From NCBI RefSeq assembly GCF_000765475.1, contig NZ_JRHO01000014.1, positions 61,574 through 93,573 of the forward strand: a stretch of 32,000 nt of DNA, read 5' to 3'. Made by a program: the position numbers and the translations under genes. Position 1 is the stretch's first letter; the number at the start of each line of letters is the position of its first letter. This document shows positions 14,330-31,985 of the stretch, piece by piece. The DNA comes from Methanococcoides methylutens (GTDB lineage Archaea > Halobacteriota > Methanosarcinia > Methanosarcinales > Methanosarcinaceae). The notes under the pieces were generated by a model. That model was not told the DNA's origin and did no database searches. It saw nothing but the letters and a program-made list of their open reading frames with translations.

Positions 14330-14340
14330 AATTAATTACT

Positions 14341-14379
14341 CGTATGCGGTTGTCGCATACGGGCTTCTTTTTTCTTTTG
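14341..14379 (+). terminator. Hairpin plus T-tract terminator downstream of argG
   Basis: An 8-bp perfect stem (CGTATGCG at 14341-14348 pairing with CGCATACG at 14354-14361, loop GTTGT) is followed by GGCTTCTTTTTTCTTTTG. Oligo-T tracts are the known archaeal termination signal. Confidence 0.55.
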
Positions 14380-14742
14380 TTGGTCTTGATTTGGATTGTT
14401 CTAAATTTATTACCCGGCTACTCATACTGTTTAAACGCATATTTTAAAACATACCCCAATTCTTAGGGTATGTTGCACTGCACTAACCCAAAAAAGTTAG
14501 AATCACTTCCCCCGCACAATCTTGCGGGGATATAGGTAAGTTGAATTTTTTGTACGAGATTGTGTGAATTGTTTGCACAACCTGTCTGTAAACATCTAAG
14601 AGAATCTAGCTATACTATTTTGGATGCTAATCAATTACAAATAAAAATATTATATATTATTATGTTATTACTGGTAATGTAAACTCTAATAACAAATTAT
14701 TTTTCTCGTTAAAATTTTGTGGTTATATTTGAAGGTAATATT

Positions 14743-15708
14743 ATGAACAAAATTGACATAGTTCCAGCTTGCAAAGGGATAATAACTAATTTAGACTTAT
14801 TAAAATCAGAAGGTACACTTCAATTTACTACGAGTCTTAGTGACTTAAAAGCTGGAGGAATCATTTTTGAAGTAAGTGGACCAGAGTTCAGCTTCATATT
14901 TGGTTCAAACGAAAAAGGACTTTTTGTAAAAAGAAACGAAGTTTTTTCAATATTGACTTATGATGATATAAAAGAAACCTCAGTAGAACCAATGATTTTT
15001 CTGACTTGGTCCTACAATAAAATTTCATTATATTTTTGTAGTGAAATTAAACATAAAAAAGCAGAAGCTCCAACAAAACCCTGTTCTCCTCCTCCATCAT
15101 TAATTAAATGGGCACGTAAACAAAATTTACTCCCAATGGTTGAATATGAAAGTGAGGAAAAATTACGCGAAAAAGTATATTCATGTTTGTTATCAATACA
15201 AGACAAAATTGATGAATATGGTGCAATAAATCCTTTTTGGGACATTAGTTATTCTGGTAAGAGTATTGTTAGCAGAACACCTAAAAAAGAAACAGATGTT
15301 CAACCTGTAATCAGCCTTTTGCTGTCGGATCAAATGCTAATGGCTGGAATAGAAGTTATACCTGAATATCAAACGGGCAGAGGTAATTTGGATTTTATGT
15401 TTATGGGGAATGTAAAAGACAATGGTATAACTAAAATATGTGCAGAATTTAAAAATGCTCATTCAAAAGATTTGTTTCATGGGCTTGAAAATCAACTTCC
15501 CCTCTATATGAAAAATCGTGAATGCAATTATGGGGCATATTGTGTCTTAAACTATAAAGGGGAATGGTTTACTAAACCTGACACATTTGAAAATAAATTG
15601 GATGTGGAACTCTCTATTCATCAAAGCAAATCTATCAATCCATTAGTCCATAACGGTATAAGGTGCTTTATATTTTCATTATCAAAAAAGAAAACTGCTA
15701 GTAAGTGA
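14743..15708 (+). CDS. Hypothetical protein with a C-terminal RecB/Cas4-like PD-(D/E)XK nuclease motif set and an unrecognised N-terminal domain
   Basis: It is the only long ORF in the AT-rich island. Motifs occur in canonical order: GNLDFMF (Asp, nt 15391-15393), ICAEFK (ExK, nt 15445-15453) and ENQLPLYM (QxxxY, nt 15493-15507). The N-terminal ~110 aa looks beta-rich and is followed by a Pro-rich linker (APTKPCSPPPS). I prefer the ATG at 14743 over the GTG at 14719. Confidence 0.55.
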   Translation: MNKIDIVPACKGIITNLDLLKSEGTLQFTTSLSDLKAGGIIFEVSGPEFSFIFGSNEKGLFVKRNEVFSILTYDDIKETSVEPMIFLTWSYNKISLYFCSEIKHKKAEAPTKPCSPPPSLIKWARKQNLLPMVEYESEEKLREKVYSCLLSIQDKIDEYGAINPFWDISYSGKSIVSRTPKKETDVQPVISLLLSDQMLMAGIEVIPEYQTGRGNLDFMFMGNVKDNGITKICAEFKNAHSKDLFHGLENQLPLYMKNRECNYGAYCVLNYKGEWFTKPDTFENKLDVELSIHQSKSINPLVHNGIRCFIFSLSKKKTASK

Positions 15709-15819
15709 AATTATTATATAACATCCGAAACTATTTTGTAACCTAGACAAACTATTATACCCATATATGTTTTAATCCTTTTAGCAATAGGAATAGATAG
15801 GCGATAATTTTTGCATAAA

Positions 15820-16149
15820 TTAAGAAACGTCTATCTTTTTCCCCCATCCATCTAATCTCTCCCTAACATGAGCATTGAGAGTAAACGTGTTCTCACTTCT
15901 GACATTTTGCTTCATATAATGCAACGTACCTTTTGAGAAACCCATCTTCTTCCATTCAGTGTAGGATATATCAATGATCTTCTTCCTCAAATCATCCGAA
16001 TCATACCTTTCAATCTTATAGGAGGGCTTAACAAACTCAATCGTTTTCCTCTTCCTAACAAGATGATGACTCAACTCTCTCGCCTTAACCAACAGGATAG
16101 ATCCCCAGGAACTATTCTTTTCCCTGTACTCAACCTTCCCGTTAACCAC
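15820..16149 (-). CDS. Hypothetical small protein, possibly a 5'-truncated gene remnant, with a putative C-terminal DNA-binding-like segment
   Basis: The ORF starts at GTG. The frame stays open 23 more codons upstream (IIFDKNVSSIKTRFAQYYVYEDD) to a TGA ending near 16221, with no in-frame ATG. The C-terminal ISYTEWKKMGFSKGTLHYMKQNV...LNAHVRERL looks helix-turn-helix-like, which is my inference only. AT-rich composition, convergent with the nuclease ORF. Confidence 0.35.
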   Translation of the reverse strand: MVNGKVEYREKNSSWGSILLVKARELSHHLVRKRKTIEFVKPSYKIERYDSDDLRKKIIDISYTEWKKMGFSKGTLHYMKQNVRSENTFTLNAHVRERLDGWGKKIDVS

Positions 16150-16285
16150 ATCATCTTCATAAACATAATACTGAGCAAACCTTGTTTTGATACTCGATAC
16201 ATTTTTATCGAATATTATTCAATGAGTATATTGTAAAATTTGCAAATAGTGCAAGTTAAAACAACTTAAATGGGAGAAAATAATA

Positions 16286-16462
16286 ATGGTAGCTATAGTT
16301 AACAGAGACGAATGTGTCGGATGCGGAGTATGTGTAGATGACTGCCCGGCCGAAGCAATATCAATGGACGGCGACAACATCGCTGTAGTAGATGCTGACA
16401 AATGTACTGAATGTGGTATATGTGTGGACTCCTGTCCATCCGAAGCAATTTCAATGGAATAA
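16286..16462 (+). CDS. Small 2x[4Fe-4S] ferredoxin (58 aa), absent from the supplied ORF track because it is under 60 aa
   Basis: My manual translation is [58 protein letters not shown]. It has two perfect CxxCxxCxxxCP motifs with clostridial-type spacing. GGGAG lies ~11 nt upstream of the ATG, and a T-rich tract (TTTATCTTTCTATTTTTAAT) follows the stop. The antisense track ORFs 16219..16401 and 16299..16700 are shadow ORFs. Confidence 0.8.
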
Positions 16463-16536
16463 GCAGGTTTATTCCATTTATCTTTCTATTTTTAATATTC
16501 AGTAGTTTCGTTTCCAATTCCTGCCTACCTGTTGAT

Positions 16537-17172
16537 TCAATTCTTCCTGTCCTTAAATTTAGCATTGGAGTGCTGGCCATCACAGAATGGTTTATTTCCA
16601 GACGCACCGCATCTGCAGAGAGCATAATGGTCCTGGGTTTCAGGTACTGAATCATCAGGATCATCAAGACTGACTCCTGTAACATTGTAAGGTCCATCAT
16701 TCAGAACAAAAATTTCCGGGCCATGTGAATAATCCTTATACAATTTTCCATTAACAGTATAGCTCAATGCGCCAGAAGGACAGGTCCTGATGAGTTTTGC
16801 TATCTCTTCCGGATCAGCAGCATCCGGATCTGCCCAGGGTTCTTCACCCTTTCTGAAAACAGAAGGTAGATTACGAACACAATGGCCTACGTGAGAACAC
16901 ACATCCCTGTTACGATGAATGGTAATATGTTTTCCGACGTAAGTATCAACCCTGTCGGGAACACGGTCTTTTTCTTTTTCTCCGGAAAAATCGTTCTTTA
17001 CATGTGTTCCATCACAAAATGGCATATTTGCCGACCCTCCACATCTGCAAAGTGCCATAGCAGGTTTTGTCTCGATGAAAACACCCTTTGAATTCCTGAG
17101 TGTTTTAAGATCTTTCACAATATATGGTCCATTTTTTGATACTTTTATTGAAGGCCTGACTTCTTTCTCCAC
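16537..17172 (-). CDS. CDGSH-type iron-sulfur protein: two zf-CDGSH domains flanking a divergent 4Fe-4S mono-cluster-like domain
   Basis: Two CDGSH signatures are present: CRCGGSANMPFCDGTH and CRCGASGNKPFCDGQH. The central CSHVGHCVRNLPSVF...PWADPDAADPEEIAKLIRTCPSGALSY matches the divergent mono-cluster ferredoxin-like domain. GTG start codon. Confidence 0.8.
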   Translation of the reverse strand: MEKEVRPSIKVSKNGPYIVKDLKTLRNSKGVFIETKPAMALCRCGGSANMPFCDGTHVKNDFSGEKEKDRVPDRVDTYVGKHITIHRNRDVCSHVGHCVRNLPSVFRKGEEPWADPDAADPEEIAKLIRTCPSGALSYTVNGKLYKDYSHGPEIFVLNDGPYNVTGVSLDDPDDSVPETQDHYALCRCGASGNKPFCDGQHSNAKFKDRKN

Positions 17173-17517
17173 TCAAACACCTCTGTAAGAAAATCTGTTG
17201 ACATCGCATTTCTAATTTTTGTAAGGAACCGTTTTTTAACAAAATTAGTGATAGAAGCTGAAAAACTTATATTCTGTTCATTTAAAATGTTTACTGCAAC
17301 ATGATCTTTTTATGGCATACTTGATTCCAATTTCCGCCATATACAAGGTTTTCAAACTTTTTGAGATATATCAGATCTGCATGAAAGTTAAATTCTATAC
17401 CAAAGGAATTATATTTTTATTTATGTATTCAAGAAAATATAAGTACATATAAGATCAAATTATTAGATGGAGTAGAACTCTATAGTTAATTCTAACAATA
17501 AAAGTGGGGGTATTGAT

Positions 17518-18651
17518 ATGAAAACTAAACAAAACTTGCTTATTTGTTTCGGAATGTCCTTGATATTACTAATAATGTCTGCAGGAACTGCTGTAGCTCC
17601 GACAGTTACTTGTACAGATGTTGGGATAGGCGATCTCGTATGGGAAGACCTCGACGGGGATGGCATAAAGAATGCAGGCGAGCCAGGTATTGCTGGTGTG
17701 ACCGTTAAACTTTACGAGTGTGGAGCTACTAATCCTATTGCAACCACAACAACTGATGCAAATGGAATGTACCTGTTCACAGGTCTTGCACCTGGTGACT
17801 ACTATGTTGAGTTTGTTGCTCCGGTTGGATACATCTTCACACCACCGGATCAGGGTGCTGACGATGCAATGGACAGTGATGCAGATCCAACCACAGGAAA
17901 GACTGTATGCACCAACCTTGAGTCAGGTGAGACCGATCTTACGTGGGATGCAGGAATGTTGGGTACAACTGGCATTGGTGATCTCGTATGGGAAGACCTC
18001 GACAGAGATGGCATAAAGGATACAGGCGAACCAGGTATTGCTAGTGTGACCGTTGAACTTTATGAGTGTGGAGGTAATGCTCCTATTGCAACCACAACAA
18101 CGAGTTCTACTGGAATGTACCTGTTCACAGGTCTTGCACCAAGTGACTACCATGTTGAGTTTGTGGCTCCAGCTGGATACATCTTCACACCACAGGATCA
18201 GGGTGCTGACGATGCAATGGACAGTGATGCAGATCCAACCACAGGAAAGACTGTATGCACCAACCTTGGGTCAGGTGAGACCGATCTTACGTGGGATGCA
18301 GGATTTTATATGATAGTTACTAAAATCAATATTGATATCAAACCAGGTTCATTCCCAAATTCCATTAATCCAAATAGCAAAGGTGTTATTCCAGTTGCAA
18401 TATTGAGTACAGACGTTTTTGATGCAACAATGGTAGATCCTGTGACCGTGGTATTTGGTCCGAATGATGTATCACCACTAAGGTGGGCAACTGAAGATGT
18501 CGATAAAGATGGAGATCTGGATCTGGTATTTCACTTTAGAACTCAGGAAACTGGAGTAGAAGCAGGGGATACAGAGGCAACTCTGACAGGTGAAACTTTT
18601 GATGGCACAAACATCGAAGGCACTGATTCAGTAAAAATTGTTCCTTCATAA
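17518..18651 (+). CDS. Secreted or cell-surface protein with two SdrD B-like (Ca-binding, Ig-like) repeats and a C-terminal beta-rich domain
   Basis: N-terminal signal-like segment (LLICFGMSLILLIMSAGTAVA). Two copies of IGDLVWEDLDxDGIKxxGEPGIAxVTVxLYEC...TTTTxxxGMYLFTGLAPxDYxVEFVAPxGYIFTPxDQGADDAMDSDADPTTGKT, which is typical of SdrD B-like repeats. No C-terminal membrane anchor. Confidence 0.7.
   Translation: MKTKQNLLICFGMSLILLIMSAGTAVAPTVTCTDVGIGDLVWEDLDGDGIKNAGEPGIAGVTVKLYECGATNPIATTTTDANGMYLFTGLAPGDYYVEFVAPVGYIFTPPDQGADDAMDSDADPTTGKTVCTNLESGETDLTWDAGMLGTTGIGDLVWEDLDRDGIKDTGEPGIASVTVELYECGGNAPIATTTTSSTGMYLFTGLAPSDYHVEFVAPAGYIFTPQDQGADDAMDSDADPTTGKTVCTNLGSGETDLTWDAGFYMIVTKINIDIKPGSFPNSINPNSKGVIPVAILSTDVFDATMVDPVTVVFGPNDVSPLRWATEDVDKDGDLDLVFHFRTQETGVEAGDTEATLTGETFDGTNIEGTDSVKIVPS
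17623..18303 (+). repeat. Tandem in-frame duplication: two 333-nt units (17623-17955 and 17971-18303) separated by a 15-nt linker
   Basis: My hand alignment, codon by codon, gives 30 mismatches in 333 nt (~91% identity). The last 129 nt of each unit differ at only 2 positions (CCG/CAG and GAG/GGG). The off-frame track ORFs 17720..18016 and 18053..18313 mirror the duplication. Confidence 0.9.
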
Positions 18652-18656
18652 AAAAT

Positions 18657-18694
18657 GATTCTGGTTTAAAATCAGAATCTATTTTTTCTTTCTT
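18657..18694 (+). terminator. Hairpin plus T-tract terminator after the SdrD-like gene
   Basis: A 7-bp perfect stem (GATTCTG at 18657-18663 pairing with CAGAATC at 18673-18679, 9-nt loop) is followed immediately by TATTTTTTCTTTCTT. Confidence 0.55.
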
Positions 18695-18746
18695 AATTCA
18701 GAATTATTATAGATTAGTTTTAAGCTAATTTTTAGACCTTCAGCCA

Positions 18747-20394: not shown

Positions 20395-21606
20395 TCACTT
20401 ATTGCAATATTCCTTTTCATCAGCAAGACAGGCTTCATATAGCTGTTCACGAAGGTCCGGCATAGCTGAAAGGGCACGGGTCCAATCAGGCATGAGCACA
20501 TCTGAAGGATGTTCAAGGTAATCTTCACCTGATCTCCTGATAACATTTGCGAACATATCAACATATAGCTCTTCTTCATGCCTGTTATAGCACAGACCAT
20601 TGCAAAGGGCATCAGCATGATACCTGCGTATAAGGTCCTGACCGAGGCGCTTGTATTTTACATGGATACCATGCAGGTAAGAAGGTGAAATTATATTATC
20701 CGTGGATTCTGTTGTGATCCTCATAAAGGTCGTGAAGATATCACCGACCATTTTGCATAGACCTTCTGATCTGTTGGAACCTACATCCTGATGCTTATGA
20801 TCATAGTAACCAAGATCAGTCTGGCAGATCTTCTTAGTTGTTGTGTTTCTGTAGACCTCTGCAAGAAGACCGACTTCAAGTCCCCAATCTGCAGGGATCC
20901 GTATGTTCATGGCAAGATCACTTGTCATAGCAAATTCACCTGCAAGAGTATACCTGAAAGCAAGAAGATATCGAAGTATGTCAGCCTTGGAATCCGCCTG
21001 TAAAGTATCGAGCAAAGGACGTACAAAAAGCCTGAAAACACGACCATGCATGGTCTTTGTTTCCATATTTATCCTTGCATAATAGCCTTTATTGAAAAAG
21101 AAGTTCAGTTCCGGTTCCACAATAGGATACAATAACTTTGCCGGGAAATCCTTGGAATAAGTGACAATATCAGCATCATGATAAGCGATAGCATAGGAAT
21201 CAAGGGTGGCGATCCCCGTAGCCAGCCAGACATCTTTCCCTTTACCCTTATAAGAAGTAATATCGATCCCCATCTTTTTCATCGTGAATAAAATGTGCTG
21301 GGCTCTGGGGCCATCACACCATACCACAATGTGAGGAGTTTTCAATTCTTTGAAAAATTCCACCACATGAACATATTCTTCTTCAGTTTCAGCTGCAAGG
21401 GCGATAACGACCTGATTAAGGCAAGTACACTCATTGAGATTGGAAATTATGTTCTTAAGAGGGGGATTGTTAACCTCTTCATACAAGATAGGAATGATGA
21501 GTGATGCAGGTCTGCGAGTTTTAAGTTCATGTATTCTTTTGATAAGCCTTTCTTTATCGATACTAAAATCATGAATTGTCGTAATATATTCTTGGTAAAA
21601 ATCCAT
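20395..21606 (-). CDS. gpgS: Glucosyl-3-phosphoglycerate synthase-like glycosyltransferase (GpgS/MpgS-related GT-A fold)
   Basis: GKGKDVWLATGIA...AYHDADIVTY (DxD-type HDAD) ...FNKGYYARI...GRVFRLFVRPLL...LAGEFAMT...DWGLEVGLL parallels the conserved blocks of characterised GpgS enzymes (GKGEALW...DSDL...GRVTELVARPLL...GGEYA...GYGVEIGLL). It is divergently paired with an MpgP/GpgP-family phosphatase. The sugar donor specificity (glucose versus mannose) cannot be read from the sequence. Confidence 0.7.
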   Translation of the reverse strand: MDFYQEYITTIHDFSIDKERLIKRIHELKTRRPASLIIPILYEEVNNPPLKNIISNLNECTCLNQVVIALAAETEEEYVHVVEFFKELKTPHIVVWCDGPRAQHILFTMKKMGIDITSYKGKGKDVWLATGIATLDSYAIAYHDADIVTYSKDFPAKLLYPIVEPELNFFFNKGYYARINMETKTMHGRVFRLFVRPLLDTLQADSKADILRYLLAFRYTLAGEFAMTSDLAMNIRIPADWGLEVGLLAEVYRNTTTKKICQTDLGYYDHKHQDVGSNRSEGLCKMVGDIFTTFMRITTESTDNIISPSYLHGIHVKYKRLGQDLIRRYHADALCNGLCYNRHEEELYVDMFANVIRRSGEDYLEHPSDVLMPDWTRALSAMPDLREQLYEACLADEKEYCNK

Positions 21607-21844
21607 CTAACTCCCCAGTAGATCTGATAGGCTGCAAAGTGTTCATAGCCCGGAATAAAGACTGGATCGAAATGCATTCCCCCAACTGTAGATGCATCCC
21701 AATATTCCCGTTATGATATGTTGAATATCTATATATAGAACATTTAATATAAGCTTTTATACAGACGGGGAATTCAAAACTGGCATCGGTAGACTAAAAT
21801 ATTTACATGCTGCCAAATATTTTTAAAAACTGCTGGCAGGAGGA

Positions 21845-22672
21845 ATGATCTTGGGGTATATTATATTTACAGATCTTGATGGCACTTTAATAGACCATGA
21901 TACTTATTCTTATGAAGCAGCAAGGCCTGCGCTTAACCTGCTAAAACAAAAAGATGTACCTCTAATTTTCTGTACCAGCAAAACCCGTGCAGAGATCGAA
22001 GTCTATGTTGAGGAACTGGACTGTCGCCATCCCTTCATATCAGAGAATGGAGGAGGCATCTTCATACCGAAAGGATATTTTGATATTGATCTGAAGTTTG
22101 ATCACAGGATCGGGGACTATAATGTCATAGAACTTGGAACCAACTATTCCAATCTAAAAGATGCCCTCGTGGAGATTAGCAAGAGCGCCGGTATTGAGAT
22201 AATCAATTTCGCAAACATGACCACTGAAGAAGTAAGTGAGGATACAGGACTCGATATTCACTCTGCAGGACTTGCAAAGCTACGCGAGTATGACGAGGTC
22301 TTCCGGATAATTGATGAAACTGAAGAAAAAGCCTCCCTGATGATGGAACTTATAAGATCTGCAGGGTACAACCACACCAGAGGTGGCAGATACTGGCATA
22401 TTATCGGGAACAACGATAAAGGCAAAGCTGTCAGGATGCTAAGTGACATCTACAGAAAGCAGTTCACTGATATCACTACAGTAGGTCTGGGCGATAGCCT
22501 GAATGACCTGCCAATGCTGGGATCTGTGGATATACCTGTTCTTGTACAAAAGCCGGGCAGCTTACACGACCCATCAATAACCGATCCGAAAATAAAGCGT
22601 GTAAAGGGTATCGGACCCATAGGGTGGAACAATGCAGTCAGCGAGATAATAGAGAAGGGGTCTGAAATTTAA
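21845..22672 (+). CDS. gpgP: HAD-IIB phosphatase of the mannosyl/glucosyl-3-phosphoglycerate phosphatase family (MpgP/YedP/GpgP)
   Basis: IIFTDLDGTLIDHDTYSYEAARPALNLLKQKDVPLIFCTSKTRAEI...FISENGGGIF...KGKAV...GLGDSLNDLPML closely follows the MpgP/YedP pattern (SDLDGTLL...VPVILCSSKT...ENGA). GGAGGA lies directly upstream of the ATG. Confidence 0.78.
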   Translation: MILGYIIFTDLDGTLIDHDTYSYEAARPALNLLKQKDVPLIFCTSKTRAEIEVYVEELDCRHPFISENGGGIFIPKGYFDIDLKFDHRIGDYNVIELGTNYSNLKDALVEISKSAGIEIINFANMTTEEVSEDTGLDIHSAGLAKLREYDEVFRIIDETEEKASLMMELIRSAGYNHTRGGRYWHIIGNNDKGKAVRMLSDIYRKQFTDITTVGLGDSLNDLPMLGSVDIPVLVQKPGSLHDPSITDPKIKRVKGIGPIGWNNAVSEIIEKGSEI

Positions 22673-22699
22673 TTTTAAGAACATAAAGGGGTACATGGA

Positions 22700-23230
22700 A
22701 TGATACGAATTGAGAATATGATATCAAGAGCCTTTTTGATAGGGATTATCAAGATGGTGGACAAGAATGGGGTCCAGAATGCACTGGAATGGTTACGTGA
22801 GATCGGGGAAGAATTAGCTGAGATCGAAGGACCTGGATTTGAAGGTGCTCGTGAAGATGACATTAACTATTTGCCGGTCTGTCCGTTTTCAAATACTCTC
22901 CTTGATTTTATAGCGATATATGGAGAGAGACCATCACAATTCGTAGAACTTGTAAACCTTTCCAACAAGCAAATGATGGAGGCAGAAGATGGATGGGAAT
23001 ATCCGGCACTGACAACTGTCACAGGCATACTTCATCACAGCTACATTAAAAAACGAGGATTGTTGGCAGGTGTTGAACTTCTTAACGTGGGATCAAGATG
23101 TCCCCGTACCAACAATATAGTCTACAACGAAAAAGCCCTTGAAAAAGCAAATATGACAAAAGAAGATGTGGATAAGTATCTTGAAAAAGCATATTACGTT
23201 TGTAAGATCAATTACCTTAAAAAGGAGTGA
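22700..23230 (+). CDS. Hypothetical protein (176 aa) between gpgP and the GH15-like gene
   Basis: Same strand, starting 27 nt after gpgP. Its stop overlaps the next gene's start (GTGA at 23227-23230). I recognise no family confidently. A weak resemblance to V4R or methanogen regulatory-domain proteins is not enough for a call. Confidence 0.5.
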   Translation: MIRIENMISRAFLIGIIKMVDKNGVQNALEWLREIGEELAEIEGPGFEGAREDDINYLPVCPFSNTLLDFIAIYGERPSQFVELVNLSNKQMMEAEDGWEYPALTTVTGILHHSYIKKRGLLAGVELLNVGSRCPRTNNIVYNEKALEKANMTKEDVDKYLEKAYYVCKINYLKKE

Positions 23231-24459
23231 ATTCTTTGAACCTGATCGAAGCTGAAAAACTCTACGAGAACAGCGTAAAGATCCTGAAGAACAACCAGCA
23301 TGAAAAAGGAGGATTTTATGCAAGTCCGCCAGGAACACGATATCCTTTTATCTACCCTCGAGACCACTCGGTGGCAATACTTGGCTGCATTGATGCCGAA
23401 ATGCTGGACGAGGCCAGAAGGGGTCTTGAATTTGTCCTGAACTCCCAAAAGCCCCTGGGAGAATTTTCCCAGAGATATGATGTTGACGGAAATGACGCCA
23501 GCTACAAGGACCTGCAGATCGATGGGAACGGACTGGTCCTTTTTGCAATGGGAAAATATTTCGAAGCAACGGGCGGACTCTTCTTTGAATCGATGGCCGA
23601 CAGGACTTTTGTGGAAAAGCACTGGGAAACTGTCAAGAAAGCCGTTGAGTTCATACTGATGAACAAGAACGAAGAGGTCGACCTGATCCATACCGTGAAC
23701 AGCATCCACGAATATCCCGCCTACGAGCATGGTTTTGAGATCTATGCCAACTCTGCCTGTTGTGCAGGGATCCTCGCAGCAGTAAAAATGGGAGAAGCTC
23801 TTGGTGAAGATGTCGCCAACTGGAAAGCTGAGGCTGAAAAGATAAGGGAAGCCATTCTTACACGGATGTATAGCCCGCGTAGGCGCTCATTTATCAAATG
23901 TATCCGTGTAAAAGAGAAAAGCAGCAACCCTATCGGATATGATGCATTCGCCTCAAGCGTCATCGATGTGGATGTTGTGGAATACGCACCTGCATATTTT
24001 GAGCTCATCGATCACCATGACATAAAGAATCGTTATACTGTCAGGAGGATACATGATAGGCTCTGGGACAAAGAGATCGGAGGCTTGAACCGCTATCCGG
24101 AAATGTGGGACAGGAATAACGGAGGATATGGCCCATGGTGCCACTTCACCTGCCAGCTTGCAAACCATTATATTGCTATTGATGACCAGGATATGGCAGA
24201 GATGTATATGGGCTGGGTAGTGGATATGGCACACAACTACCTCCTGCCTGAACATATCTCAACAATTGAAAGGTTTGAGATATGGCATGAAGACTATACC
24301 AACGCAAAGATCCTCAGGGATAGTAAACTCACCATGATCGAGAAAGTGCGTAACCATCCAAAATGGAAAGACGGGATGGCATACGTAACGATACCCCTGA
24401 TATGGCCTCATGCAGAGTATATCAGGACTTACAAGAGCTATATTGAGAAGTTTGGATAA
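23227..24459 (+). CDS. Glycoside hydrolase family 15-like protein (glucoamylase/trehalase-related (alpha/alpha)6 barrel)
   Basis: GH15-like blocks: YPFIYPRDHSVA (YxxxWxRD region), DLQIDGNGLVLFAM (QxDxxG region), GGLNRYPEMWDR, and the C-terminal PLIWPHAEYI (the LxWSHAE motif of GH15). The GTG start is coupled to the upstream ORF; a TTG at 23236 is an alternative start. Confidence 0.72.
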   Translation: MNSLNLIEAEKLYENSVKILKNNQHEKGGFYASPPGTRYPFIYPRDHSVAILGCIDAEMLDEARRGLEFVLNSQKPLGEFSQRYDVDGNDASYKDLQIDGNGLVLFAMGKYFEATGGLFFESMADRTFVEKHWETVKKAVEFILMNKNEEVDLIHTVNSIHEYPAYEHGFEIYANSACCAGILAAVKMGEALGEDVANWKAEAEKIREAILTRMYSPRRRSFIKCIRVKEKSSNPIGYDAFASSVIDVDVVEYAPAYFELIDHHDIKNRYTVRRIHDRLWDKEIGGLNRYPEMWDRNNGGYGPWCHFTCQLANHYIAIDDQDMAEMYMGWVVDMAHNYLLPEHISTIERFEIWHEDYTNAKILRDSKLTMIEKVRNHPKWKDGMAYVTIPLIWPHAEYIRTYKSYIEKFG

Positions 24460-24601: not shown

Positions 24602-25372
24602 TCAGAGCGGGAGACAGACCTTCCTTTGTACGGAACTAACATGATCGATAGCAACATCGATCCCATATGCAAGTGTCATGTTCTCTTTTGTTATTACTTC
24701 TTCAGCAGTCCCCTGAGCTATGAAATTATTCTCAAGCATTATGGCAACATTTTTTGAACCTATAAAAGCATGATCCGGGAAATGTGTGCTCATTATTACA
24801 GAAGTCCCCTGAGAAGAAAGTTTGTCAATAAGGTTCAAAACACGTACCTGGTTCCCAAAATCCAGATGGGATGTCGGTTCATCCAGGAGCAATATTTCCG
24901 GTTCCTGAGCCAGTGCCCTTGCGATCAAAGCCAGTTGCTTTTCACCACCACTTATTTCTGTGACAGAACTATCCATCAGATGAGAAATGCCTACTTTAAC
25001 GATGGCATTTTCCGCGATCTTAAGATCCTTTTCGCCCGGAGAGGAGAAAAAAGGAAGATGCGGTGCTCTGCCAAGCATTACAAAATCCAGAATGGAAAAG
25101 GGAAATACCGACTGATCTGCCTGTGGGACATAGCCTATCTTTTTAGCTATCTCTGTTCTGCTCATCGAAGAGACATCCCTGCCGTCAATATATGCATTCC
25201 CATTACTCAAATTCAGCACGTTGCCAAGGCATTTGATCAGGGTTGATTTACCTATCCCGTTCGGACCAAGTATGCATAAGGTTTCACCTTTATTTAAAGA
25301 AAAAGATATGTTCTCAAATACATTCTTCTTCCCGTCATACGAATATGAAGCATTGTTCACTCTTAAGATCAT
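24602..25372 (-). CDS. ABC transporter ATP-binding protein, iron-siderophore/cobalamin (FecE/BtuD) type
   Basis: Walker A GPNGIGKST, signature ISGGEKQ, Walker B ILLLDEPTSHLD. The ATG at 25372 overlaps the permease stop (ATGA at 25372-25369); the track start at 25378 is a TTG. Confidence 0.9.
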   Translation of the reverse strand: MILRVNNASYSYDGKKNVFENISFSLNKGETLCILGPNGIGKSTLIKCLGNVLNLSNGNAYIDGRDVSSMSRTEIAKKIGYVPQADQSVFPFSILDFVMLGRAPHLPFFSSPGEKDLKIAENAIVKVGISHLMDSSVTEISGGEKQLALIARALAQEPEILLLDEPTSHLDFGNQVRVLNLIDKLSSQGTSVIMSTHFPDHAFIGSKNVAIMLENNFIAQGTAEEVITKENMTLAYGIDVAIDHVSSVQRKVCLPL

Positions 25373-26478
25373 GACCAACCAACCTTCTTTCTTTGTAAAA
25401 GATAAGCAAAAAACGGAGCTCCTATTAGTGCCGTAAGAACTCCCAGGGGAATCTCTATACTCATTAAACTCCTTGCCAGATCGTCCACCACCAAAAGGAA
25501 GGATGCACCAAGGAAAATTGACATTGGCAAAAGCTTTTTGTGCTCAGGCCCGACGATCATTCTTGCAATATGAGGCACAACAAGACCAACCCATCCAATG
25601 ATCCCGCTTATACTGACTGCGGAAGTGGTGATCAGAGTAGCACAAATTACAACCAATATTGTCATTTTCCGGGTATCTATTCCCAATGATTTTGCCTCGT
25701 CCTCTCCTAAAGAAAGTATATTGATGCGCCATCCGATTAGAACTAAGATAAGCATAGAGACCAGCATCCCGGGTGCTACATAGACAAGATCATCAAACCG
25801 GACAGAGGACAGGCTTCCCATAAGCCAGAATACCATCTCAGGAAGCTTGTCGTATGGATCTGCAACATATTTTACCAGGGATGTCAAAGCAGTGAAAACC
25901 GCACCTACAATAATACCTGAAAGCACCAGGACCAATGTAACCGTTGCCCTGCAGAATCTGCTCAGACCGTAGGACAGAAAAGCTGCAGATAAACCAAAAG
26001 AAAACGCCATTAATTGGATCATGATTATGTTCTCACTTATCAGGATACCAAAACAAGCGCCAAACCCGGCACCTGCTGCCACACCCAGAATATGGGGAGA
26101 AACCAGCGGATTGCGGAAAAGCCCCTGGAAAGAAGCTCCAGATACTGATAATCCAGCACCTACCAGCATGGCGGCAATGATCCTTGGAAGACGGACCTGA
26201 AATATTACAGTATCCACATTTGAAGAGCTTGCAGGATCCACCGACACAAAAAGCGAAACGATCAGGGATACCAAATGGGAAACAAGGCTGCTCATTATAG
26301 TAAGCGGAGGAATCGAATACCTCCCAATGAAAAAGGAGAATCCAAAAAGAAAGACCATAAGGAAAAATACAAGGAGAATCTGATTATTACTACCAGACAG
26401 CCTGTGAATGATCCACCATAACCTTGAACTTTTTTTTATTCCAGTATCAGACACCATATCAAACCCATATCCTAACAT
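25369..26478 (-). CDS. ABC transporter permease, FecCD/BtuC family
   Basis: A polytopic hydrophobic protein with FecCD-family blocks: RLPRIIAAMLVGAGLSVSGASFQGLFRNPLVSPHILGV, LSLGEDEAKSLGI, GIIGWVGLVVPHIARMIVG, and GVLTALIGAPFFAYLL. Confidence 0.9.
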   Translation of the reverse strand: MLGYGFDMVSDTGIKKSSRLWWIIHRLSGSNNQILLVFFLMVFLFGFSFFIGRYSIPPLTIMSSLVSHLVSLIVSLFVSVDPASSSNVDTVIFQVRLPRIIAAMLVGAGLSVSGASFQGLFRNPLVSPHILGVAAGAGFGACFGILISENIIMIQLMAFSFGLSAAFLSYGLSRFCRATVTLVLVLSGIIVGAVFTALTSLVKYVADPYDKLPEMVFWLMGSLSSVRFDDLVYVAPGMLVSMLILVLIGWRINILSLGEDEAKSLGIDTRKMTILVVICATLITTSAVSISGIIGWVGLVVPHIARMIVGPEHKKLLPMSIFLGASFLLVVDDLARSLMSIEIPLGVLTALIGAPFFAYLLQRKKVGWS

Positions 26479-26508
26479 GCATACATGATAATTTTGTTGA
26501 ATCAGTTA

Positions 26509-28251
26509 TTACTTAGATGAAGCACCGTAAAAAGACCTGTTCTGCCTTGAAGGATCAAAGGAAAAACCATAGAACTTTTCATAAAACCGGTTTGCTTCCT
26601 TTTCAATGTCAAAATCAAAGATATCCGGATGCAACTTGTTTGCGATATACATCAGTCCCAATATCCATCTCGGACTTCCGAAATCCCAGGATGGCCGAAG
26701 GCCGTATATCTGTCTGCTCTTTACAGCATCTGCCGAAAGACCATGCTTTTCACAATAATCATATGAATCGGAAACAGGGGTTGAAAGAAAACCGGATATG
26801 AATATAAATTCAGGATTCATTTCGGCAAATTCTTCCTGAGAAATATTAACTCCGGGTTTACCCTCTCTCTTGATCAGCTGATTTACACTTTCCCCGCCGG
26901 CAGCTTCAACAAGATTGTTCTCAATACGCTCTCCGTTGAGCGCAAAAAGAGGATATCCCATAGAATAATAAACCCGTGGCCTTCCAGTGTTTTTTACTCC
27001 CGACCTGATAAGGTCCAGTTTCTCCTTCATATAATCCACAAGTTCCATTCCTTCCCTTTTTTTGTCTGCAAGGGCGGCAAAATGCTCAATTACATCAAAA
27101 TAGGAATCAAGGTTCTGTGAACTGGTATGAAGCTCCTCCAAATATCCGGTTTCCATGACATTTAGCCATATTTCGGCAAGTTTCCTGTCGTCTCTTATCC
27201 CAAGGCAGATCAGAATCGCATGGATCATCTCCAGAGCCCGGGTAAGCCTGTATCCTCCCATAAAACCCGGTTCATGATGATTTTTTTTGCTGATGTAGCC
27301 CCTGAAAAGATCCGGGACGGAGCATTCACATTTTCCTTCAGGCAGGTATGCTATTGTGCGTGAACCCATGGGACCGAAGAACTCCCTTTGAAAAATCACC
27401 TGACCACATTCGGGACATACCGTATTCAAATATTCGGTACCCGGAGAATTAAACAAATAGACATAAGTAAGATCTTGCCTTAATTTGTCACACAGAATTT
27501 CAGCGTCCCTGATCGTTGGTTCGATCTGCGGGACTGCATCCCCAAAAGGCACAAACCTCATAATCTGGAACGGTATATCCTTTGAAAGAGAAAAAACATA
27601 TTTAGCAGTATTTATAACCTCATCTTCTGAACCTTTGATGTAGATGGTAGAAACTTCAACATGAACATCACTTTCATTCAATAGTTTCAGATTCCTGAAA
27701 ACAGGTTCTGAGCTTTTGACCCCGCAGGAAATATATCTTTCATCGGAGAAGCCTTTTATTCCGACATTTACAAAATCAATTAACGGGATAAGTTCTTTTA
27801 ATGCGCTTTCTGCAAAATAGCCATTTGTTGAACACCCGATAAACAGGTCGTTTTCCTTAGCCTTTCTGGCAAGGTCCTTAAACGTGAAAAATGAAACGAT
27901 CGGATCGTTAAGACAAAAAACGATCCCGATACAATCTTCCTCAAGAGCTTTTTTTATTACCTGGTCATTACTCATTCCGCCATTCTTTTTACCTGAAACA
28001 AGCCGTGAAGCAATGATCTCTGATACGCAACCCTCACATTTAAAATTGCAGCCAATGGTACACACCTGCAGGAATTTTCCTCGTGGATGAAAATGAAGGA
28101 TCGGAACAGTTTCAATAGAAATTGGCAGCATCGTAAAGTAGTTGCATGGGAATCTCTCAACGATCTTATCGCCCTCAATGGCATACATACGACATTGGCC
28201 ATATTTTCCTTCTGCGATATTGCAACCGATCTCACATATGGTGCATTGCAT
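26509..28251 (-). CDS. Radical SAM enzyme (PflA/AmmeMemoRadiSam-like activase fold) fused to a C-terminal periplasmic-binding-protein type 2-like (SBP C-lobe) domain
   Basis: The CxxxCxxC motif CNFKCEGC lies at nt 28027-28050. Before it come an N-terminal Cys cluster (CTICEIGCNIAEGKYGQC) and PILHFHPRGKFLQVCTIGCN, as in COG1180-type radical SAM proteins. A second Cys4 is present (CPECGQ...CEC). The C-terminal ~180-230 aa (nt ~26557-27249) align by eye with the C-lobe of the operon's SBP. Its start lies 2 nt after the methyltransferase stop. Confidence 0.75.
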   Translation of the reverse strand: MQCTICEIGCNIAEGKYGQCRMYAIEGDKIVERFPCNYFTMLPISIETVPILHFHPRGKFLQVCTIGCNFKCEGCVSEIIASRLVSGKKNGGMSNDQVIKKALEEDCIGIVFCLNDPIVSFFTFKDLARKAKENDLFIGCSTNGYFAESALKELIPLIDFVNVGIKGFSDERYISCGVKSSEPVFRNLKLLNESDVHVEVSTIYIKGSEDEVINTAKYVFSLSKDIPFQIMRFVPFGDAVPQIEPTIRDAEILCDKLRQDLTYVYLFNSPGTEYLNTVCPECGQVIFQREFFGPMGSRTIAYLPEGKCECSVPDLFRGYISKKNHHEPGFMGGYRLTRALEMIHAILICLGIRDDRKLAEIWLNVMETGYLEELHTSSQNLDSYFDVIEHFAALADKKREGMELVDYMKEKLDLIRSGVKNTGRPRVYYSMGYPLFALNGERIENNLVEAAGGESVNQLIKREGKPGVNISQEEFAEMNPEFIFISGFLSTPVSDSYDYCEKHGLSADAVKSRQIYGLRPSWDFGSPRWILGLMYIANKLHPDIFDFDIEKEANRFYEKFYGFSFDPSRQNRSFYGASSK

Positions 28252-28253
28252 AT

Positions 28254-28907
28254 TTATTCCACCTTCCTGAACAGTATCCAGAAACCGGATTCATCTTCTA
28301 TTATCTCATAATGCCCTATTTCGGCAGTTAACAGCGCCTTTTTAAAAGAGTCGAGTTTGGATCGTTCCAATCTTTTTGCGGCAGTTTGGGACCAGTTCTC
28401 ATCCCTTTTTTCCATTTCCCGTGTGATCTTTGACTTCAGTTCAGCTGTTCCGAAGCCACCCCCTATATAGGCTGATCCACCGGGTTTCAGTACCCGGTAT
28501 ATCTGCCTGAAGGCTTCAGGCACATTTTCCCAGAAAAAGAGGGAACCACGACTTACGATCAGCTCAGCAAAGTTATCATCAAAAGGCATGTCATGAACAT
28601 CCCCCAGTACAGGGATCACCTTCTCGTCGAGGTTGCCTGAATCAATCCTTTTCTTTGCTATAGCAACCATTTTTTCAGAGAAATCCATTGCATAGACCTG
28701 ACCAACCATGATCTTGCTAATGGCAATTGCAAGTGATGCGGGACCACTGCCCACATCAATGCAAATCCCACTGTTGATATTGCACCTGTCTATAATCTGC
28801 TCTGAAATAACAGGATATATAGGTGCAAAGACATTGGTCGCAACATCTTCAAACTCTTCGGCATAATCATCATGAAATCGAACTTTATCACTTGATCTGT
28901 CTATCAT
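28254..28907 (-). CDS. Class I SAM-dependent methyltransferase (Methyltransf_11/25-like)
   Basis: Motif I ICIDVGSGPASLA (nt ~28737-28757), post-I acidic AMDFS, VLGDVHDMPFDDNFAELIVS, and LKPGGSAYIGG. AGGTGG lies ~8 nt upstream of the ATG. Confidence 0.8.
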   Translation of the reverse strand: MIDRSSDKVRFHDDYAEEFEDVATNVFAPIYPVISEQIIDRCNINSGICIDVGSGPASLAIAISKIMVGQVYAMDFSEKMVAIAKKRIDSGNLDEKVIPVLGDVHDMPFDDNFAELIVSRGSLFFWENVPEAFRQIYRVLKPGGSAYIGGGFGTAELKSKITREMEKRDENWSQTAAKRLERSKLDSFKKALLTAEIGHYEIIEDESGFWILFRKVE

Positions 28908-28936
28908 TTAATCCACCTTCTGTTTTGTAAAAACCA

Positions 28937-30019
28937 TTAATTGGATTTAGAAGCTGGATTCAATAGTTCATCCAACTCAGTTCCCGACAGTTCATAGTGA
29001 TAGAACTCTGAATAGAATTCCTTAACAAAACCCCTGAGGTCAAGATCGCTGAACTCTTCCGGATACAGCACTTTGGCTGTCCATGGTATACCGATTATCC
29101 TGTTCACTCCCGGTGGCCTGTCAAACCAGCAAAAAGGAGCATCCGGGAATAGATATACCTCATGGTCCTTTACCGCAGTGATATCATGCCAGAGAGGGTC
29201 TTCATATATATTTTCATAGAAGTCACGGTCACCTGTGATGATGACTTCAGGATCCCATTGCAATACCTGTTCGATGGATACCTCTGACCTTCCGTATCCT
29301 ATGTCAAGCGGACATTCTGCTACGTTGATGCCACCACATATTTCGATCAATTGACTGTGGGGAGAGCCCTTAGGATCTGTCAGCAGCCCTTCCGGACCTT
29401 CTGCATAATAGACACGCTTCCTTTCATCTTCAGGTATCTGTGAGACCTTTGTAGTGACAGTGTCAAGTGTTCCTTTATAGAAAGAGATTAATTGCCCTGC
29501 CCGTTCTTCTTCCCCCAGAAGTTCACCCATAAATCGTATTGGTTCTTCATAGGCCGTGGCATCGGTTGTCGATTCAATACCTACAACAGGAATTGTACCA
29601 AACTTTTCCTGTCTTGCATTGATAGTAGAAGTAACATCCCCTCCGCTATTGTAGCCTTCAAAGACAACATCAGGACCGATAGATATAATGGTTTCATAAT
29701 TTCCATCCTGTTTACCAAACCACCCGCCAATCACAGGAACAGCCTGGTACTCTGGTTTCAGATATGTTTCCGATTCCTGTGGCAGAAAATTCCAGCCTGC
29801 CAATTTATCGGGAGCCAGCATGTAAATGAGCATTGTTGCAGGAGGAGAGGTAGCAACTACTTTGTTCACATCGGCTGGAATTTCAACTGTCCTTCCTGCC
29901 ATATCGGTTATCGATATTGTGTTCTGCGCATAAGTTTCTTTTTGATCAACACATGCGCTTGAGCATACCGCAAACAAGACCACACATATCAATAAAATGG
30001 ATCTGAATTTTTTATTCAT
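28937..30019 (-). CDS. ABC transporter substrate-binding (lipo)protein, Fe-siderophore/heme/cobalamin type (periplasmic binding protein type 2)
   Basis: Signal/lipobox-like N-terminus (MNKKFRSILLICVVLFAVCSSAC). GRTVEIPADVNKVVATSPPATMLIYMLAPDKLAGW, DVVF, RVYYAEG, WDPEVIIT and AVKDHEVYLFP are characteristic of FecB/BtuF-like class III SBPs. Confidence 0.85.
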   Translation of the reverse strand: MNKKFRSILLICVVLFAVCSSACVDQKETYAQNTISITDMAGRTVEIPADVNKVVATSPPATMLIYMLAPDKLAGWNFLPQESETYLKPEYQAVPVIGGWFGKQDGNYETIISIGPDVVFEGYNSGGDVTSTINARQEKFGTIPVVGIESTTDATAYEEPIRFMGELLGEEERAGQLISFYKGTLDTVTTKVSQIPEDERKRVYYAEGPEGLLTDPKGSPHSQLIEICGGINVAECPLDIGYGRSEVSIEQVLQWDPEVIITGDRDFYENIYEDPLWHDITAVKDHEVYLFPDAPFCWFDRPPGVNRIIGIPWTAKVLYPEEFSDLDLRGFVKEFYSEFYHYELSGTELDELLNPASKSN

Positions 30020-30239: not shown

Positions 30240-31985
30240 TTAAATTTTTTTATCTTCCACTATTGGAGATACCAGACTAAAAGTATCTACATCAAAAAGC
30301 CCCATATCCGTAAGCCTTAAAGAGGGAATCACCGGGAGAGCTATGAAAGAGTGGGTTATGAACGGTGCCGGAAGGCTGCAACCGATACTTTTTACTGCCA
30401 TGTGAAGATCGTTCAATCTTTTTTCAACCTCTTCGACCGGAAGAGTGCTCAACAGCCCGGCAAATGGTAGTTCAAGCTTGCCCACCACCTTACCATCGCT
30501 GACAACACATATACCGCCATTCATCTCACGGATGGTATTGGCACACAATGCCATATCCGAATGGTTGTCCCCGGTTACAACAACGTTATGACTGTCATGA
30601 CCTATACTCTGGCCGATAGCACCATTGCTGATACCTATTCCTTTGATAAAGCCAAGACCGATGTTACCATTCCTGCCATGCCTTTCGATTACGACAACAC
30701 TCAAGATATCGTTACCAAGGTCCGGAAGCAGTACACCATTGGTGTCTGAATGAAGTATAACACTTTCTTTTTCCGTAAGGATCAGGTCGGGCAGGACCTT
30801 TATCACTGAAACTCGGTGATCACTGTCGGGACCTGCTGTCAGTTGCAGATCAGACGGCCTGACCTGTGGGAATCGCACCGTATCAAAAACCACATTCGGA
30901 TAGTCATAGGAAGCAGTAAAACCTTCAACAGCCTTTCCTGCAGCATATACCGAATCTATGCTGAAAGTATCAAGGTCGTTAAGTACGACCAGATCGGCCT
31001 TCCTGCCAATTGAAATAGAGCCAACGACATTGTCAAGATGATAGTGCTTTGCGGTATTGATGCTTGCCATGCAGATCGCATCGATAGGGGAAAGTCCCAT
31101 TGCTATAGCTCTCCTGACGATCACATCCATATAGCCTTTCATCAGGTCGGATGGATGCTTGTCATCGGTCACAAAGAAAACGTTCTCAAGGGAAACTCCA
31201 TCCTCAATAAGTCTTGGAAGGAACCTATCAAGGGATTTAGCTGCAGACCCCTCCCTTATCATAAGCTTCATTCCAAGACGCAGTTTCTCCAGTGCCTCTT
31301 CATATTCAATAGATTCGTGGTCCGTAGATATTCCGGCTGCCATATAACCCCATAATTGTTCTCCGGAAATTGCCGGACAGTGACCATCGACCACGAGCCT
31401 GTCCTTAAGTGCAGCCCTTATTATGGACAACTTGTTCTCATCCCCGAACAATACGCCGGGATAGTCCATCATCTCACCAAGGCCAACAACATTCTCGTTA
31501 TCGATCAGCGAATCAATATCATCTGCACTGATGGATGCACCTGCTGTTTCAAAAGTGGTTGCAGGAACACAGGATGAGATTGCTACAAAAGCATTCAAAA
31601 GCAGTGATGACGCTTCTTCAAGCACAAGTTCGATGCCTTTTTTACCAAGGACATTGGCTATCTCATGGGGATCAATCACAACAGATGTTGTACCGTGTTG
31701 CAGAGCAGGTACCGAAAACTGACTCAGGGTAACCATACTTGATTCAAAATGGACATGTCCGTCGACAAGCCCCGGACAGATGTAGCGACCACTTACATCG
31801 ATGAGATGAGTGGCATCTCCTTTAAGGCAGGAAACATCACCGATGCCTACAATGTAACCGTCCTTAACTGCAATGTCCCAGTCCAGAATCTCTTTCGTAT
31901 TAACGTTAACAATACAACCACCAGTAAAGATCGTGTCTGCTTTAACTTTGCCTGTAGCTGCAAATATCCTGTCCTTTATGTCCAT
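30240..31985 (-). CDS. ade: Adenine deaminase (amidohydrolase superfamily)
   Basis: GRYICPGLVDGHVHFESSMVTLSQFSVPALQHGTTSVVIDPHEIANV matches the adenine deaminase metal-binding HxH block, and downstream TDHES and GHDSHN blocks are present. The length of 581 aa is typical. Confidence 0.87.
   Translation of the reverse strand: MDIKDRIFAATGKVKADTIFTGGCIVNVNTKEILDWDIAVKDGYIVGIGDVSCLKGDATHLIDVSGRYICPGLVDGHVHFESSMVTLSQFSVPALQHGTTSVVIDPHEIANVLGKKGIELVLEEASSLLLNAFVAISSCVPATTFETAGASISADDIDSLIDNENVVGLGEMMDYPGVLFGDENKLSIIRAALKDRLVVDGHCPAISGEQLWGYMAAGISTDHESIEYEEALEKLRLGMKLMIREGSAAKSLDRFLPRLIEDGVSLENVFFVTDDKHPSDLMKGYMDVIVRRAIAMGLSPIDAICMASINTAKHYHLDNVVGSISIGRKADLVVLNDLDTFSIDSVYAAGKAVEGFTASYDYPNVVFDTVRFPQVRPSDLQLTAGPDSDHRVSVIKVLPDLILTEKESVILHSDTNGVLLPDLGNDILSVVVIERHGRNGNIGLGFIKGIGISNGAIGQSIGHDSHNVVVTGDNHSDMALCANTIREMNGGICVVSDGKVVGKLELPFAGLLSTLPVEEVEKRLNDLHMAVKSIGCSLPAPFITHSFIALPVIPSLRLTDMGLFDVDTFSLVSPIVEDKKI

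Follow-up and report, generated by a model that had tools for sequence, protein, structure and literature searches.

A radical SAM protein fused to a derived half of a class III substrate-binding protein in an importer operon of Methanococcoides methylutens

ChuW, the radical S-adenosylmethionine (SAM) methyltransferase of the heme-uptake operon of Escherichia coli O157, opens imported heme anaerobically. Both ChuW and HutW are cytoplasmic radical SAM proteins that are encoded together with a class III substrate-binding protein (SBP) and a type II importer, and their chemistry couples a radical step to methyl transfer as an anaerobic substitute for oxygenases. A comparable arrangement was analysed here in a 32,000 nt stretch of DNA from Methanococcoides methylutens (contig NZ_JRHO01000014.1, positions 61,574 to 93,573; referred to below as the window), in which a 580-aa radical SAM protein is encoded between the genes of a class III SBP and those of a type II importer. 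The C-terminal module of this protein was found to be a derived half of a class III SBP, not a complete SBP. ChuW is HemN-like, performs both steps itself and has no SBP-derived domain, whereas the fusion protein has a PflA-like core and is accompanied by a separate methyltransferase. The list of NCBIfam matches to the fusion protein contained no HemN-family match, and no direct comparison with HemN was made.

Other described systems resemble parts of the locus. The type II importer MolBC-A of Haemophilus influenzae (HI1470/71/72) transports molybdate and tungstate, and the permease encoded in the window was closest to MolB (HI1471, 245 bits), ahead of FhuB (173 bits), HmuU (167 bits) and BtuC (137 bits). 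The window SBP matched MolA (PDB 3psa) with 90 bits but was closer to 4pag (189 bits), with 4ovk second at 105 bits. We know of no radical SAM protein or methyltransferase that is associated with MolBC-A. The top family match of fusion protein residues 1-294, including the Cys-rich N-terminal extension, was the AmmeMemoRadiSam radical SAM protein (TIGR04337, 114 bits); the fusion protein nevertheless fell far under the 220-bit cut-off of this model and carries an extra C-terminal module of 250 residues. No other NCBIfam model reached its cut-off either, and neither AMMECR1/Memo partners nor a glycyl-radical enzyme were seen among the recurrent neighbours of the fusion loci. When a predicted structure was compared to known structures with Foldseek, the radical SAM core was best matched by PflA-type activases (8fo0 and 3cb8, template modelling score 0.63-0.68), with NifB (7jma) and MoaA also among the matches. 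Unlike the glycyl-radical activases, the fusion protein scored 25 bits against the corresponding models, TIGR02493 and TIGR02494, which have cut-offs of 232 and 174 bits, respectively. A partial TIM-barrel radical SAM core joined to an alpha/beta domain that holds substrate or cofactor beside the cluster is a design shared with NifB-NifX fusions, class B cobalamin enzymes and Mmp10/DUF512, but the domain appended in the fusion protein is of SBP origin. A possible likeness between the cobalamin domain of Mmp10 and BtuF was dropped, as neither the Mmp10 structure paper nor a 2025 review mentions BtuF, an ABC transporter or a binding protein.

A sequence-only reading of this DNA had proposed that the C-terminal third of the radical SAM protein is a paralog of the C-lobe of the SBP encoded in the same operon, based on five blocks aligned by hand, and had suggested BLASTP, HHalign, AlphaFold and Foldseek comparisons. 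These comparisons were carried out. In pairwise BLASTP, residues 377-578 of the radical SAM protein aligned with residues 150-357 of the SBP (26% identity over 217 columns, E = 5e-9), and all five hand-aligned blocks fell within this single alignment. When the profiles of 81 fusion C-domains and of 61 SBPs were compared, the probability was 99.3% (E = 2e-20, 182 columns) and residues 382-569 were paired with SBP residues 155-348; a longer query still began at residues 381 and 154, respectively, and a negative control with residues 1-320 gave a probability of 0.1%. The proposed homology was therefore confirmed from approximately residue 381 (nt 27111) onwards, but not for residues 335-380, which a boundary at nt 27249 had included and which belong to a linker. 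The Pfam Peripla_BP_2 model (PF01497) matched residues 379-519 at profile positions 91-232 of 235 only (E = 3e-6), with a score of 27.2 bits compared to the gathering score of 27.5 bits; this score was exceeded by two relatives, P0287 (43.7 bits) and P0296 (31.8 bits).

The structural comparison agreed with these results. An AlphaFold2 model of the fusion protein, calculated with 81 homologs as input, had a mean predicted local distance difference test (pLDDT) value of 91 and a predicted template modelling (pTM) score of 0.91. The best match in the PDB to the C-terminal module was the SBP 4hn9 (E = 5e-13, root-mean-square deviation 2.2 Å, 195 columns), followed by 4ovk, 4pag, MolA (3psa) and CeuE, with BtuF also among the structural matches; the deviation from class III SBPs was 2.2-3.0 Å over about 195 columns. 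The part of the SBP that has been retained corresponds to the backbone helix and the C-lobe (SBP residues 154-348), so that in place of the two-lobe architecture of class III SBPs there is a half-domain only. With class III SBPs the module shares the core motifs VYY, GG, NP, AV, W..P, LG and FY..FY. Unlike them, the fusion protein has no N-lobe and no signal peptide, the module is covalently joined to an enzyme, has its own cleft-loop residues and falls in a clade apart from all sampled SBPs. Hydropathy analysis of the fusion protein revealed no signal peptide or transmembrane segment (maximum Kyte-Doolittle (KD) value over 19 residues of 1.47, inside the radical SAM core), whereas the window SBP has a hydrophobic N-terminal signal (KD 2.38 across residues 7-25). 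Since the SBP has a signal and the fusion protein has none, the half-SBP is placed in the cytoplasm, as had been supposed in the sequence-only reading.

The remainder of the fusion protein contains further invariant features. The cluster motif CNFKCEGC is encoded at nt 28027-28050, and C68-x3-C72-x2-C75 was invariant in the alignment. The point of fusion is marked by a 340-aa paralog from Desulfobacula, which aligned with residues 1-335 only (30% identity, E = 1e-53); the zinc-ribbon-like insertion that follows the radical SAM core is also present in this paralog, which has no SBP part. The helical linker carries an invariant GGYRxxR motif and forms helices at residues 335-349, 355-368 and 371-377 in the model; no homology to SBPs was detectable in its residues 331-380, as the hhalign match began at residue 381. 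A public record of the identical protein (P0001) is 559 aa long, covers 96% of the query and is 21 residues shorter than the open reading frame (ORF) described here. If these 21 residues are the N-terminal ones (nt 28189-28251), the 559-aa call loses the invariant residues C3, C6, C10 and C20 that are kept by all homologs.

Conservation within the family was compared between the half-SBP and the radical SAM core. Columns that were at least 98% conserved made up 21% of the C-lobe (residues 421-569) and 16% of the radical SAM core, and the mean frequency of the major residue was 0.67 and 0.65, respectively; the backbone helix had no invariant columns and was free to vary. The C-lobe is thus strongly constrained, on par with the catalytic core. 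Its four invariant motifs, MGxPLFAxNxxRxE, GKPG, SGF and WDFGxPRW, lie mostly right after beta strands, and the invariant residues cluster in the loops that follow strands at residues 426-438, 482-485 and 515-517. In class III SBPs, the crossover loops of the Rossmann-like lobes line the cleft between the lobes. This conservation pattern is consistent with a specific binding function that has been retained.

When the C-domain and SBP families were merged in one alignment, the common structural core consisted of VYY, GG, P, A, W, G, A, P and F. The cleft-loop residues were conserved within each family but differed between them: M431, N439, R442, E444, N457 and D523 in the fusion C-domains, and E207, D215, S219, H221, D300 and R301 in the SBPs. 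The suggestion that the half-SBP binds the same ligand as the SBP was therefore not supported as it had been worded; the C-domain and the SBP of the operon probably recognise related, not identical, ligands or ligand states.

Full-length fusion proteins have been kept in 253 or more species, all of them strict anaerobes. A protein search at E ≤ 1e-5 returned 520 clusters (90% identity), and nearly all of the best 120 were 560-616 aa long and 48-81% identical to the window protein; their hosts included Methanococcoides, Methanococcus maripaludis (CAF30736), Methanosarcina acetivorans (AAM07874), Methanothrix, Methanoculleus, Desulfobacula toluolica and Spirochaetes. Relatives were encoded in 253 genomes, with one genome taken per species, among which were methanogens, ANME-1, Ca. 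Methanolliviera, Desulfobacterales, Desulfatiglandales, Desulfotruncus, Spirochaetota and Desulfotomaculia. Identity to proteins of Methanohalophilus was 79-81% for the fusion protein and 83-86% for the SBP. Given this distribution, the architecture is not unusual, contrary to what had been supposed. In full-text literature searches for the architecture and for locus tags, including MMP1176-1183, no paper on the architecture and no functional data were found; MMP1179 was mentioned only incidentally, as a structural neighbour of CouO, and the PDB codes of the nearest SBP structures led to no matching papers. The result is a widespread fusion family for which no curated family model or describing paper was found.

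The origin of the half-SBP was examined by sequence scores and by a tree. The C-domain of the window protein scored 30-50 bits against the SBP family of the window; scores were 54-63 bits with a second type of SBP from related loci and as high as 79 bits with unlinked SBPs that stand alone. A search of a representative library with the C-domain also revealed distant fusion subfamilies, with 28-30% C-domain identity and the same Radical_SAM plus Peripla_BP_2 architecture. In a neighbour-joining tree of 65 C-lobes (BLOSUM-score distances, as Kimura distances were saturated; midpoint root, no outgroup), all of the fusion C-domains, distant subfamilies included, formed one clade in 60/60 bootstraps, and the SBPs encoded beside the fusions fell in at least three different SBP clades. 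Although the tree is crude, its signal was consistent: the capture of the half-SBP was a single, ancient event and not a copying of the current neighbouring gene. The C-domain and the SBP of the operon are thus paralogs in the broad sense of homology; specific descent from the operon's SBP was not borne out, since other SBPs scored higher and the fusion C-domains formed their own clade. The nearest non-fusion relatives of the C-domain (among P0275, P0283-P0286, P0293 and P0297) included proteins of up to 964 aa with two or three tandem Peripla_BP_2 domains, and fusions of Oxidored_molyb with Peripla_BP_2 of 488-1020 aa.

The fusion gene is the third of five closely packed genes on the minus strand (24602..30019), which encode, in order, the class III SBP, a SAM-dependent methyltransferase, the fusion protein, a FecCD permease and an ABC ATPase. 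The intergenic gaps are 29, 2, 30 and -10 nt; the methyltransferase stop codon therefore lies 2 nt ahead of the start of the radical SAM gene. The methyltransferase is the ortholog of MMP1179 of M. maripaludis, for which there is a structure (PDB 3dlc, E = 2e-61). Coordinates of the genes and of the parts of the fusion protein are listed in Table 1.

Table 1. Genes of the operon and parts of the fusion protein, with positions in the window
Feature	Position	Strand	Basis or remarks
Extracytoplasmic class III SBP, 360 aa	28937..30019	-	First operon gene; Pfam Peripla_BP_2, E 3e-23
Class I SAM-dependent methyltransferase, UbiE/Methyltransf_11 type, 217 aa	28254..28907	-	Pfam Methyltransf_11, E 1e-20
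Radical SAM/half-SBP fusion protein, 580 aa	26509..28251	-	ORF; Pfam Radical_SAM and Peripla_BP_2
N-terminal Cys-rich beta domain, residues 1-58	28078..28251	-	Invariant C3, C6, C10, C20 (alignments A1, A2); within TIGR04337 match
Radical SAM core, residues 59-270	27442..28077	-	PF04055, 47.3 bits (cut-off 29.5)
Zinc-ribbon-like insertion, residues 271-330	27262..27441	-	C279, C282, C308, C310 nearly invariant (alignment A2)
Family-specific helical linker, residues 331-380	27112..27261	-	Invariant G332, G333, Y334, R335, R338; H375 nearly invariant
SBP-derived module, residues 381-569	26545..27111	-	Last N-lobe helix, backbone helix and complete C-lobe of a class III SBP
C-terminal tail, residues 570-580	26512..26544	-	Invariant N571, R572, F574 (alignment A2); mean pLDDT 57 for residues 571-580
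FecCD-family permease of type II ABC importer, 369 aa	25369..26478	-	Pfam FecCD, E 2e-89
ABC transporter ATPase, 258 aa	24602..25378	-	Pfam ABC_tran, E 4e-32; 10-nt overlap with permease gene

The gene neighbourhood was compared in the 78 loci that had enough upstream sequence, in the 43 loci of at least 15 kb and, for accessory genes, in 83 loci. The methyltransferase gene was located directly upstream of the fusion gene in 73/78 loci, often overlapping the start of the radical SAM gene, and the SBP, FecCD permease and ATPase genes were all present in 39/43 of the long loci. The fusion gene is almost always in translational coupling with the UbiE-like methyltransferase gene and lies within or beside an operon for an importer of the FecCD/MolBC type. 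Gene order was kept in M. maripaludis (MMP1178-1183) and in M. acetivorans; in D. toluolica the methyltransferase-radical SAM pair was kept and the transporter operon lay a few kb upstream. Accessory genes encoded DUF364/DUF4213 proteins (13/83 loci, in five phyla), a Methyltransf_2 O-methyltransferase (9 loci) and a 278-aa methyltransferase (about 12 loci). The Desulfobacula loci (L003, 4210-6420, with equivalents in L020, L022, L024, L027 and L028) contained a second SBP-FecCD-ATPase operon, which ends in the 340-aa radical SAM core paralog without a half-SBP, followed by a conserved 390-aa protein. Because this stand-alone paralog also ends an SBP-FecCD-ATPase operon, the link between this radical SAM clade and importers is independent of the fusion.

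Several variants of the locus were observed. The 390-aa protein was present in 7 Desulfobacula loci and had no Pfam match; it was considered as a detached half-SBP, and this was rejected because it had no BLASTP similarity to the C-domain. Two Methanoculleus loci (L048, 3333-5060; L049, 4972-6699, minus strand) contained a second, divergent fusion gene, which encodes a 575-aa protein with 36% identity and lies inside the permease-ATPase operon, convergent with the first. Just upstream of the M. maripaludis cluster, MMP1176 and MMP1177 (L001, 4602-5746), two ORFs that overlap and are 194 and 204 aa long, together encode an SBP; a paper lists them as the N- and C-terminal halves of an SBP for iron transport. 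This arrangement could reflect a split gene or a frameshift. The MMP1176 protein decreases under H2 limitation (PMC2723118).

Some loci contained clues to the cargo of the importer. In loci of diderm bacteria (L084, 1354-8728; L062, 2866-7987; and partly L013, 7029-8651), genes for a TonB-dependent receptor and an ExbB/ExbD/ExbD/TonB system were added, and the best matches of the receptor, which were weak, were to BtuB and heme receptors. The presence of an outer membrane receptor and a TonB system argues for a large or scarce chelate as the cargo. The same loci (L013 again in part) encoded a membrane pair of a short CcsA-like (Cytochrom_C_asm) and a ResB-like protein, in which the WWD-like motif was degenerate (WGSPFRWGTRH); together with the BtuB/heme-like receptor, this pair may indicate tetrapyrrole handling. 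Molybdenum or tungsten is suggested by the MolB-like permease, the MolA match, the DUF364 genes and a single MOT1 transporter. The latter was encoded in a spirochaete locus (L085, 13553-18574, minus strand), in an SBP-FecCD-ATPase-DUF4213/DUF364-MFS_MOT1 operon (MFS_MOT1 being a molybdate-transporter family) that adjoins a methyltransferase-radical SAM-SBP-methyltransferase cluster. DUF364 has been linked to transporters of molybdenum, tungsten and vanadium and shows cofitness with nif in M. maripaludis (PMC2954201; bioRxiv 10.1101/2024.03.05.583561), and MolA binds molybdate and tungstate (PMC4031551). Molybdate as the cargo by simple transfer from MolA is disfavoured by the conserved cleft residues of the window SBP family, E207, H221, D300 and R301, which are common to 4pag but are not in MolA.

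Taken together, these data point to the half-SBP as a cytoplasmic ligand-holding module in which the importer's cargo, or a compound derived from that cargo, is presented for radical chemistry and methylation, a reading to which we assign a probability of roughly 55%. The pTM score of 0.91 suggests that the half-SBP is rigidly packed on the radical SAM core. With its conserved loops it would line one side of the substrate pocket, and the radical SAM barrel, through its open side, would stand in for the missing N-lobe. The probable substrate is the small-molecule cargo or its derivative, most likely an organic metal chelate; the radical SAM core would act on this compound by hydrogen-atom abstraction, and its methylation would fall to the partner methyltransferase. 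Such a pathway could release a metal without oxygen or turn the cargo into a cofactor that the cell can use. The restriction of the family to strict anaerobes suggests an oxygen-independent counterpart of the oxygenase and reductase reactions of aerobes, and by analogy ChuW may be regarded as a precedent for an uptake operon with its own radical processing enzyme.

Four observations weigh against this proposal. The transporter was not nearby in 4 of the 43 long loci, the contextual clues to the cargo conflict (tetrapyrrole or metal chelate as opposed to molybdenum or tungsten), the cleft-loop residues of the C-domain are not those of the operon's SBP, and neither the window nor any of 13 bacterial loci had a cobalamin, Moco or NiCo riboswitch that reached the gathering threshold.

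A more far-reaching version, put forward tentatively and judged possible rather than probable, is that these proteins form a new class of post-import radical enzymes, in which the radical SAM barrel replaces the absent lobe of the half-SBP. Cargo from a type II importer would pass to the half-SBP and, with the dedicated methyltransferase, be converted without oxygen so that a metal is freed or activated, for instance by the breakdown of a tetrapyrrole or metallophore. If so, this would be a general route of trace-metal acquisition in methanogens, anaerobic methanotrophic (ANME) archaea and sulfate reducers. Methanogens and sulfate reducers rely heavily on iron, nickel, cobalt, molybdenum and tungsten, the uptake of which in sulfidic, anoxic habitats is poorly understood, and the methyltransferase-radical SAM pair has been kept from Methanococcus to Desulfobacula inside operons for chelate-type importers. 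It would also be a case of an extracellular binding fold re-used as the substrate-recognition domain of an enzyme. The family is present in M. maripaludis (MMP1179-1180) and M. acetivorans, both of which are genetically tractable, and the half-SBP offers an experimental handle, as the ligand of the isolated domain or of the cognate SBP would be a candidate substrate of a new radical SAM reaction.

Among the alternatives, the one that fares best is biosynthetic, although we consider it unlikely. The methyltransferase-radical SAM pair, in some loci with DUF364 or extra methyltransferases, would build a SAM-derived metallophore or cofactor that is secreted and recovered by the importer, and the half-SBP would bind a product-like intermediate. 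There is precedent in the only characterised DUF364 enzyme, which forms an azetidine amino acid by cyclising methylated SAM, and DUF364 genes are found together with those of radical SAM C-methyltransferases (PMC12930334); a role in metal chelation has also been proposed for DUF364 (PMC2954201). The DUF364, O-methyltransferase and 278-aa methyltransferase genes counted above fit such a pathway, but they are not in the window nor in most of the loci, where the invariant set consists of the methyltransferase, the radical SAM protein and the importer only. Furthermore, no recurrent exporter or scaffold-building enzyme, such as a non-ribosomal peptide synthetase or a protein like nicotianamine synthase, was found among the clusters of neighbouring genes.

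It is less probable again that the half-SBP permanently binds a prosthetic group, for example a corrinoid methyl carrier loaded by the methyltransferase, which would make the pair a split analogue of the cobalamin-dependent radical SAM methylases. In favour of this, the fusion is strictly coupled to a SAM methyltransferase, the methyltransferase weakly resembles the corrinoid-protein-associated CpaM (33 bits compared to a cut-off of 180), and the invariant residues M431 and C500 could be axial ligands. BtuF is a class III SBP and was among the structural matches; by sequence, however, it was a poor match (E about 0.4) compared to 4hn9 (1e-10). No B12-binding domain or motif was found with Pfam and NCBIfam, none of the 13 bacterial loci had a cobalamin riboswitch, and reviews of the cobalamin-binding domains in radical SAM enzymes name no SBP-like domain.

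Slightly more doubtful still is a purely structural role, in which the half-SBP has lost ligand binding and serves as a module for dimerisation or for docking to the methyltransferase or to the cytoplasmic face of the transporter. The N-lobe, which is half of every SBP site, is missing, and half-domains often complement each other by dimerising. Against this, the loops of the former cleft are where the invariant polar and aromatic residues gather, the constraint on the C-lobe matches that on the radical SAM core, and the high pTM score suggests that the module packs on its own radical SAM core and not on a partner. An accidental resemblance or an artefact of annotation, for instance two genes joined by a frameshift, which the Pfam score 0.3 bits under the gathering threshold might have suggested, is refuted by the hhalign and Foldseek matches and by an unbroken 580-aa ORF whose length is kept in hundreds of archaeal and bacterial genomes, leaving it a negligible probability.

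Other genes in the window were also recorded. The next gene upstream of the operon, 220 nt away and in the same orientation, encodes adenine deaminase (TIGR01178, 583 bits; 30240-31985, minus strand); it may help to dispose of adenine-containing by-products of the SAM enzymes or may be a mere neighbour. The region at 20395-24459 contains compatible-solute genes, which fits a halophilic methanogen: it encodes a glucosyl-3-phosphoglycerate synthase of the methanogen type (NF040724, 748 bits, above the cut-off) and an enzyme of the mannosyl-3-phosphoglycerate phosphatase family (TIGR02461, 262 bits), together with a 176-aa ORF without a family match and a GH15-like protein of 410 aa that weakly matched oligosaccharide amylase. 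The stretch at 14001-18700 has a low guanine plus cytosine content, 0.345-0.395 compared to about 0.44-0.50 elsewhere in the window. It contains a 329-aa ORF whose only match, a weak one, was to the C-terminal region of the antiphage protein EruA, as well as genes for a CDGSH/Fer4_19 iron-sulfur protein (16537-17172) and an SdrD_B-repeat protein (17518-18651).

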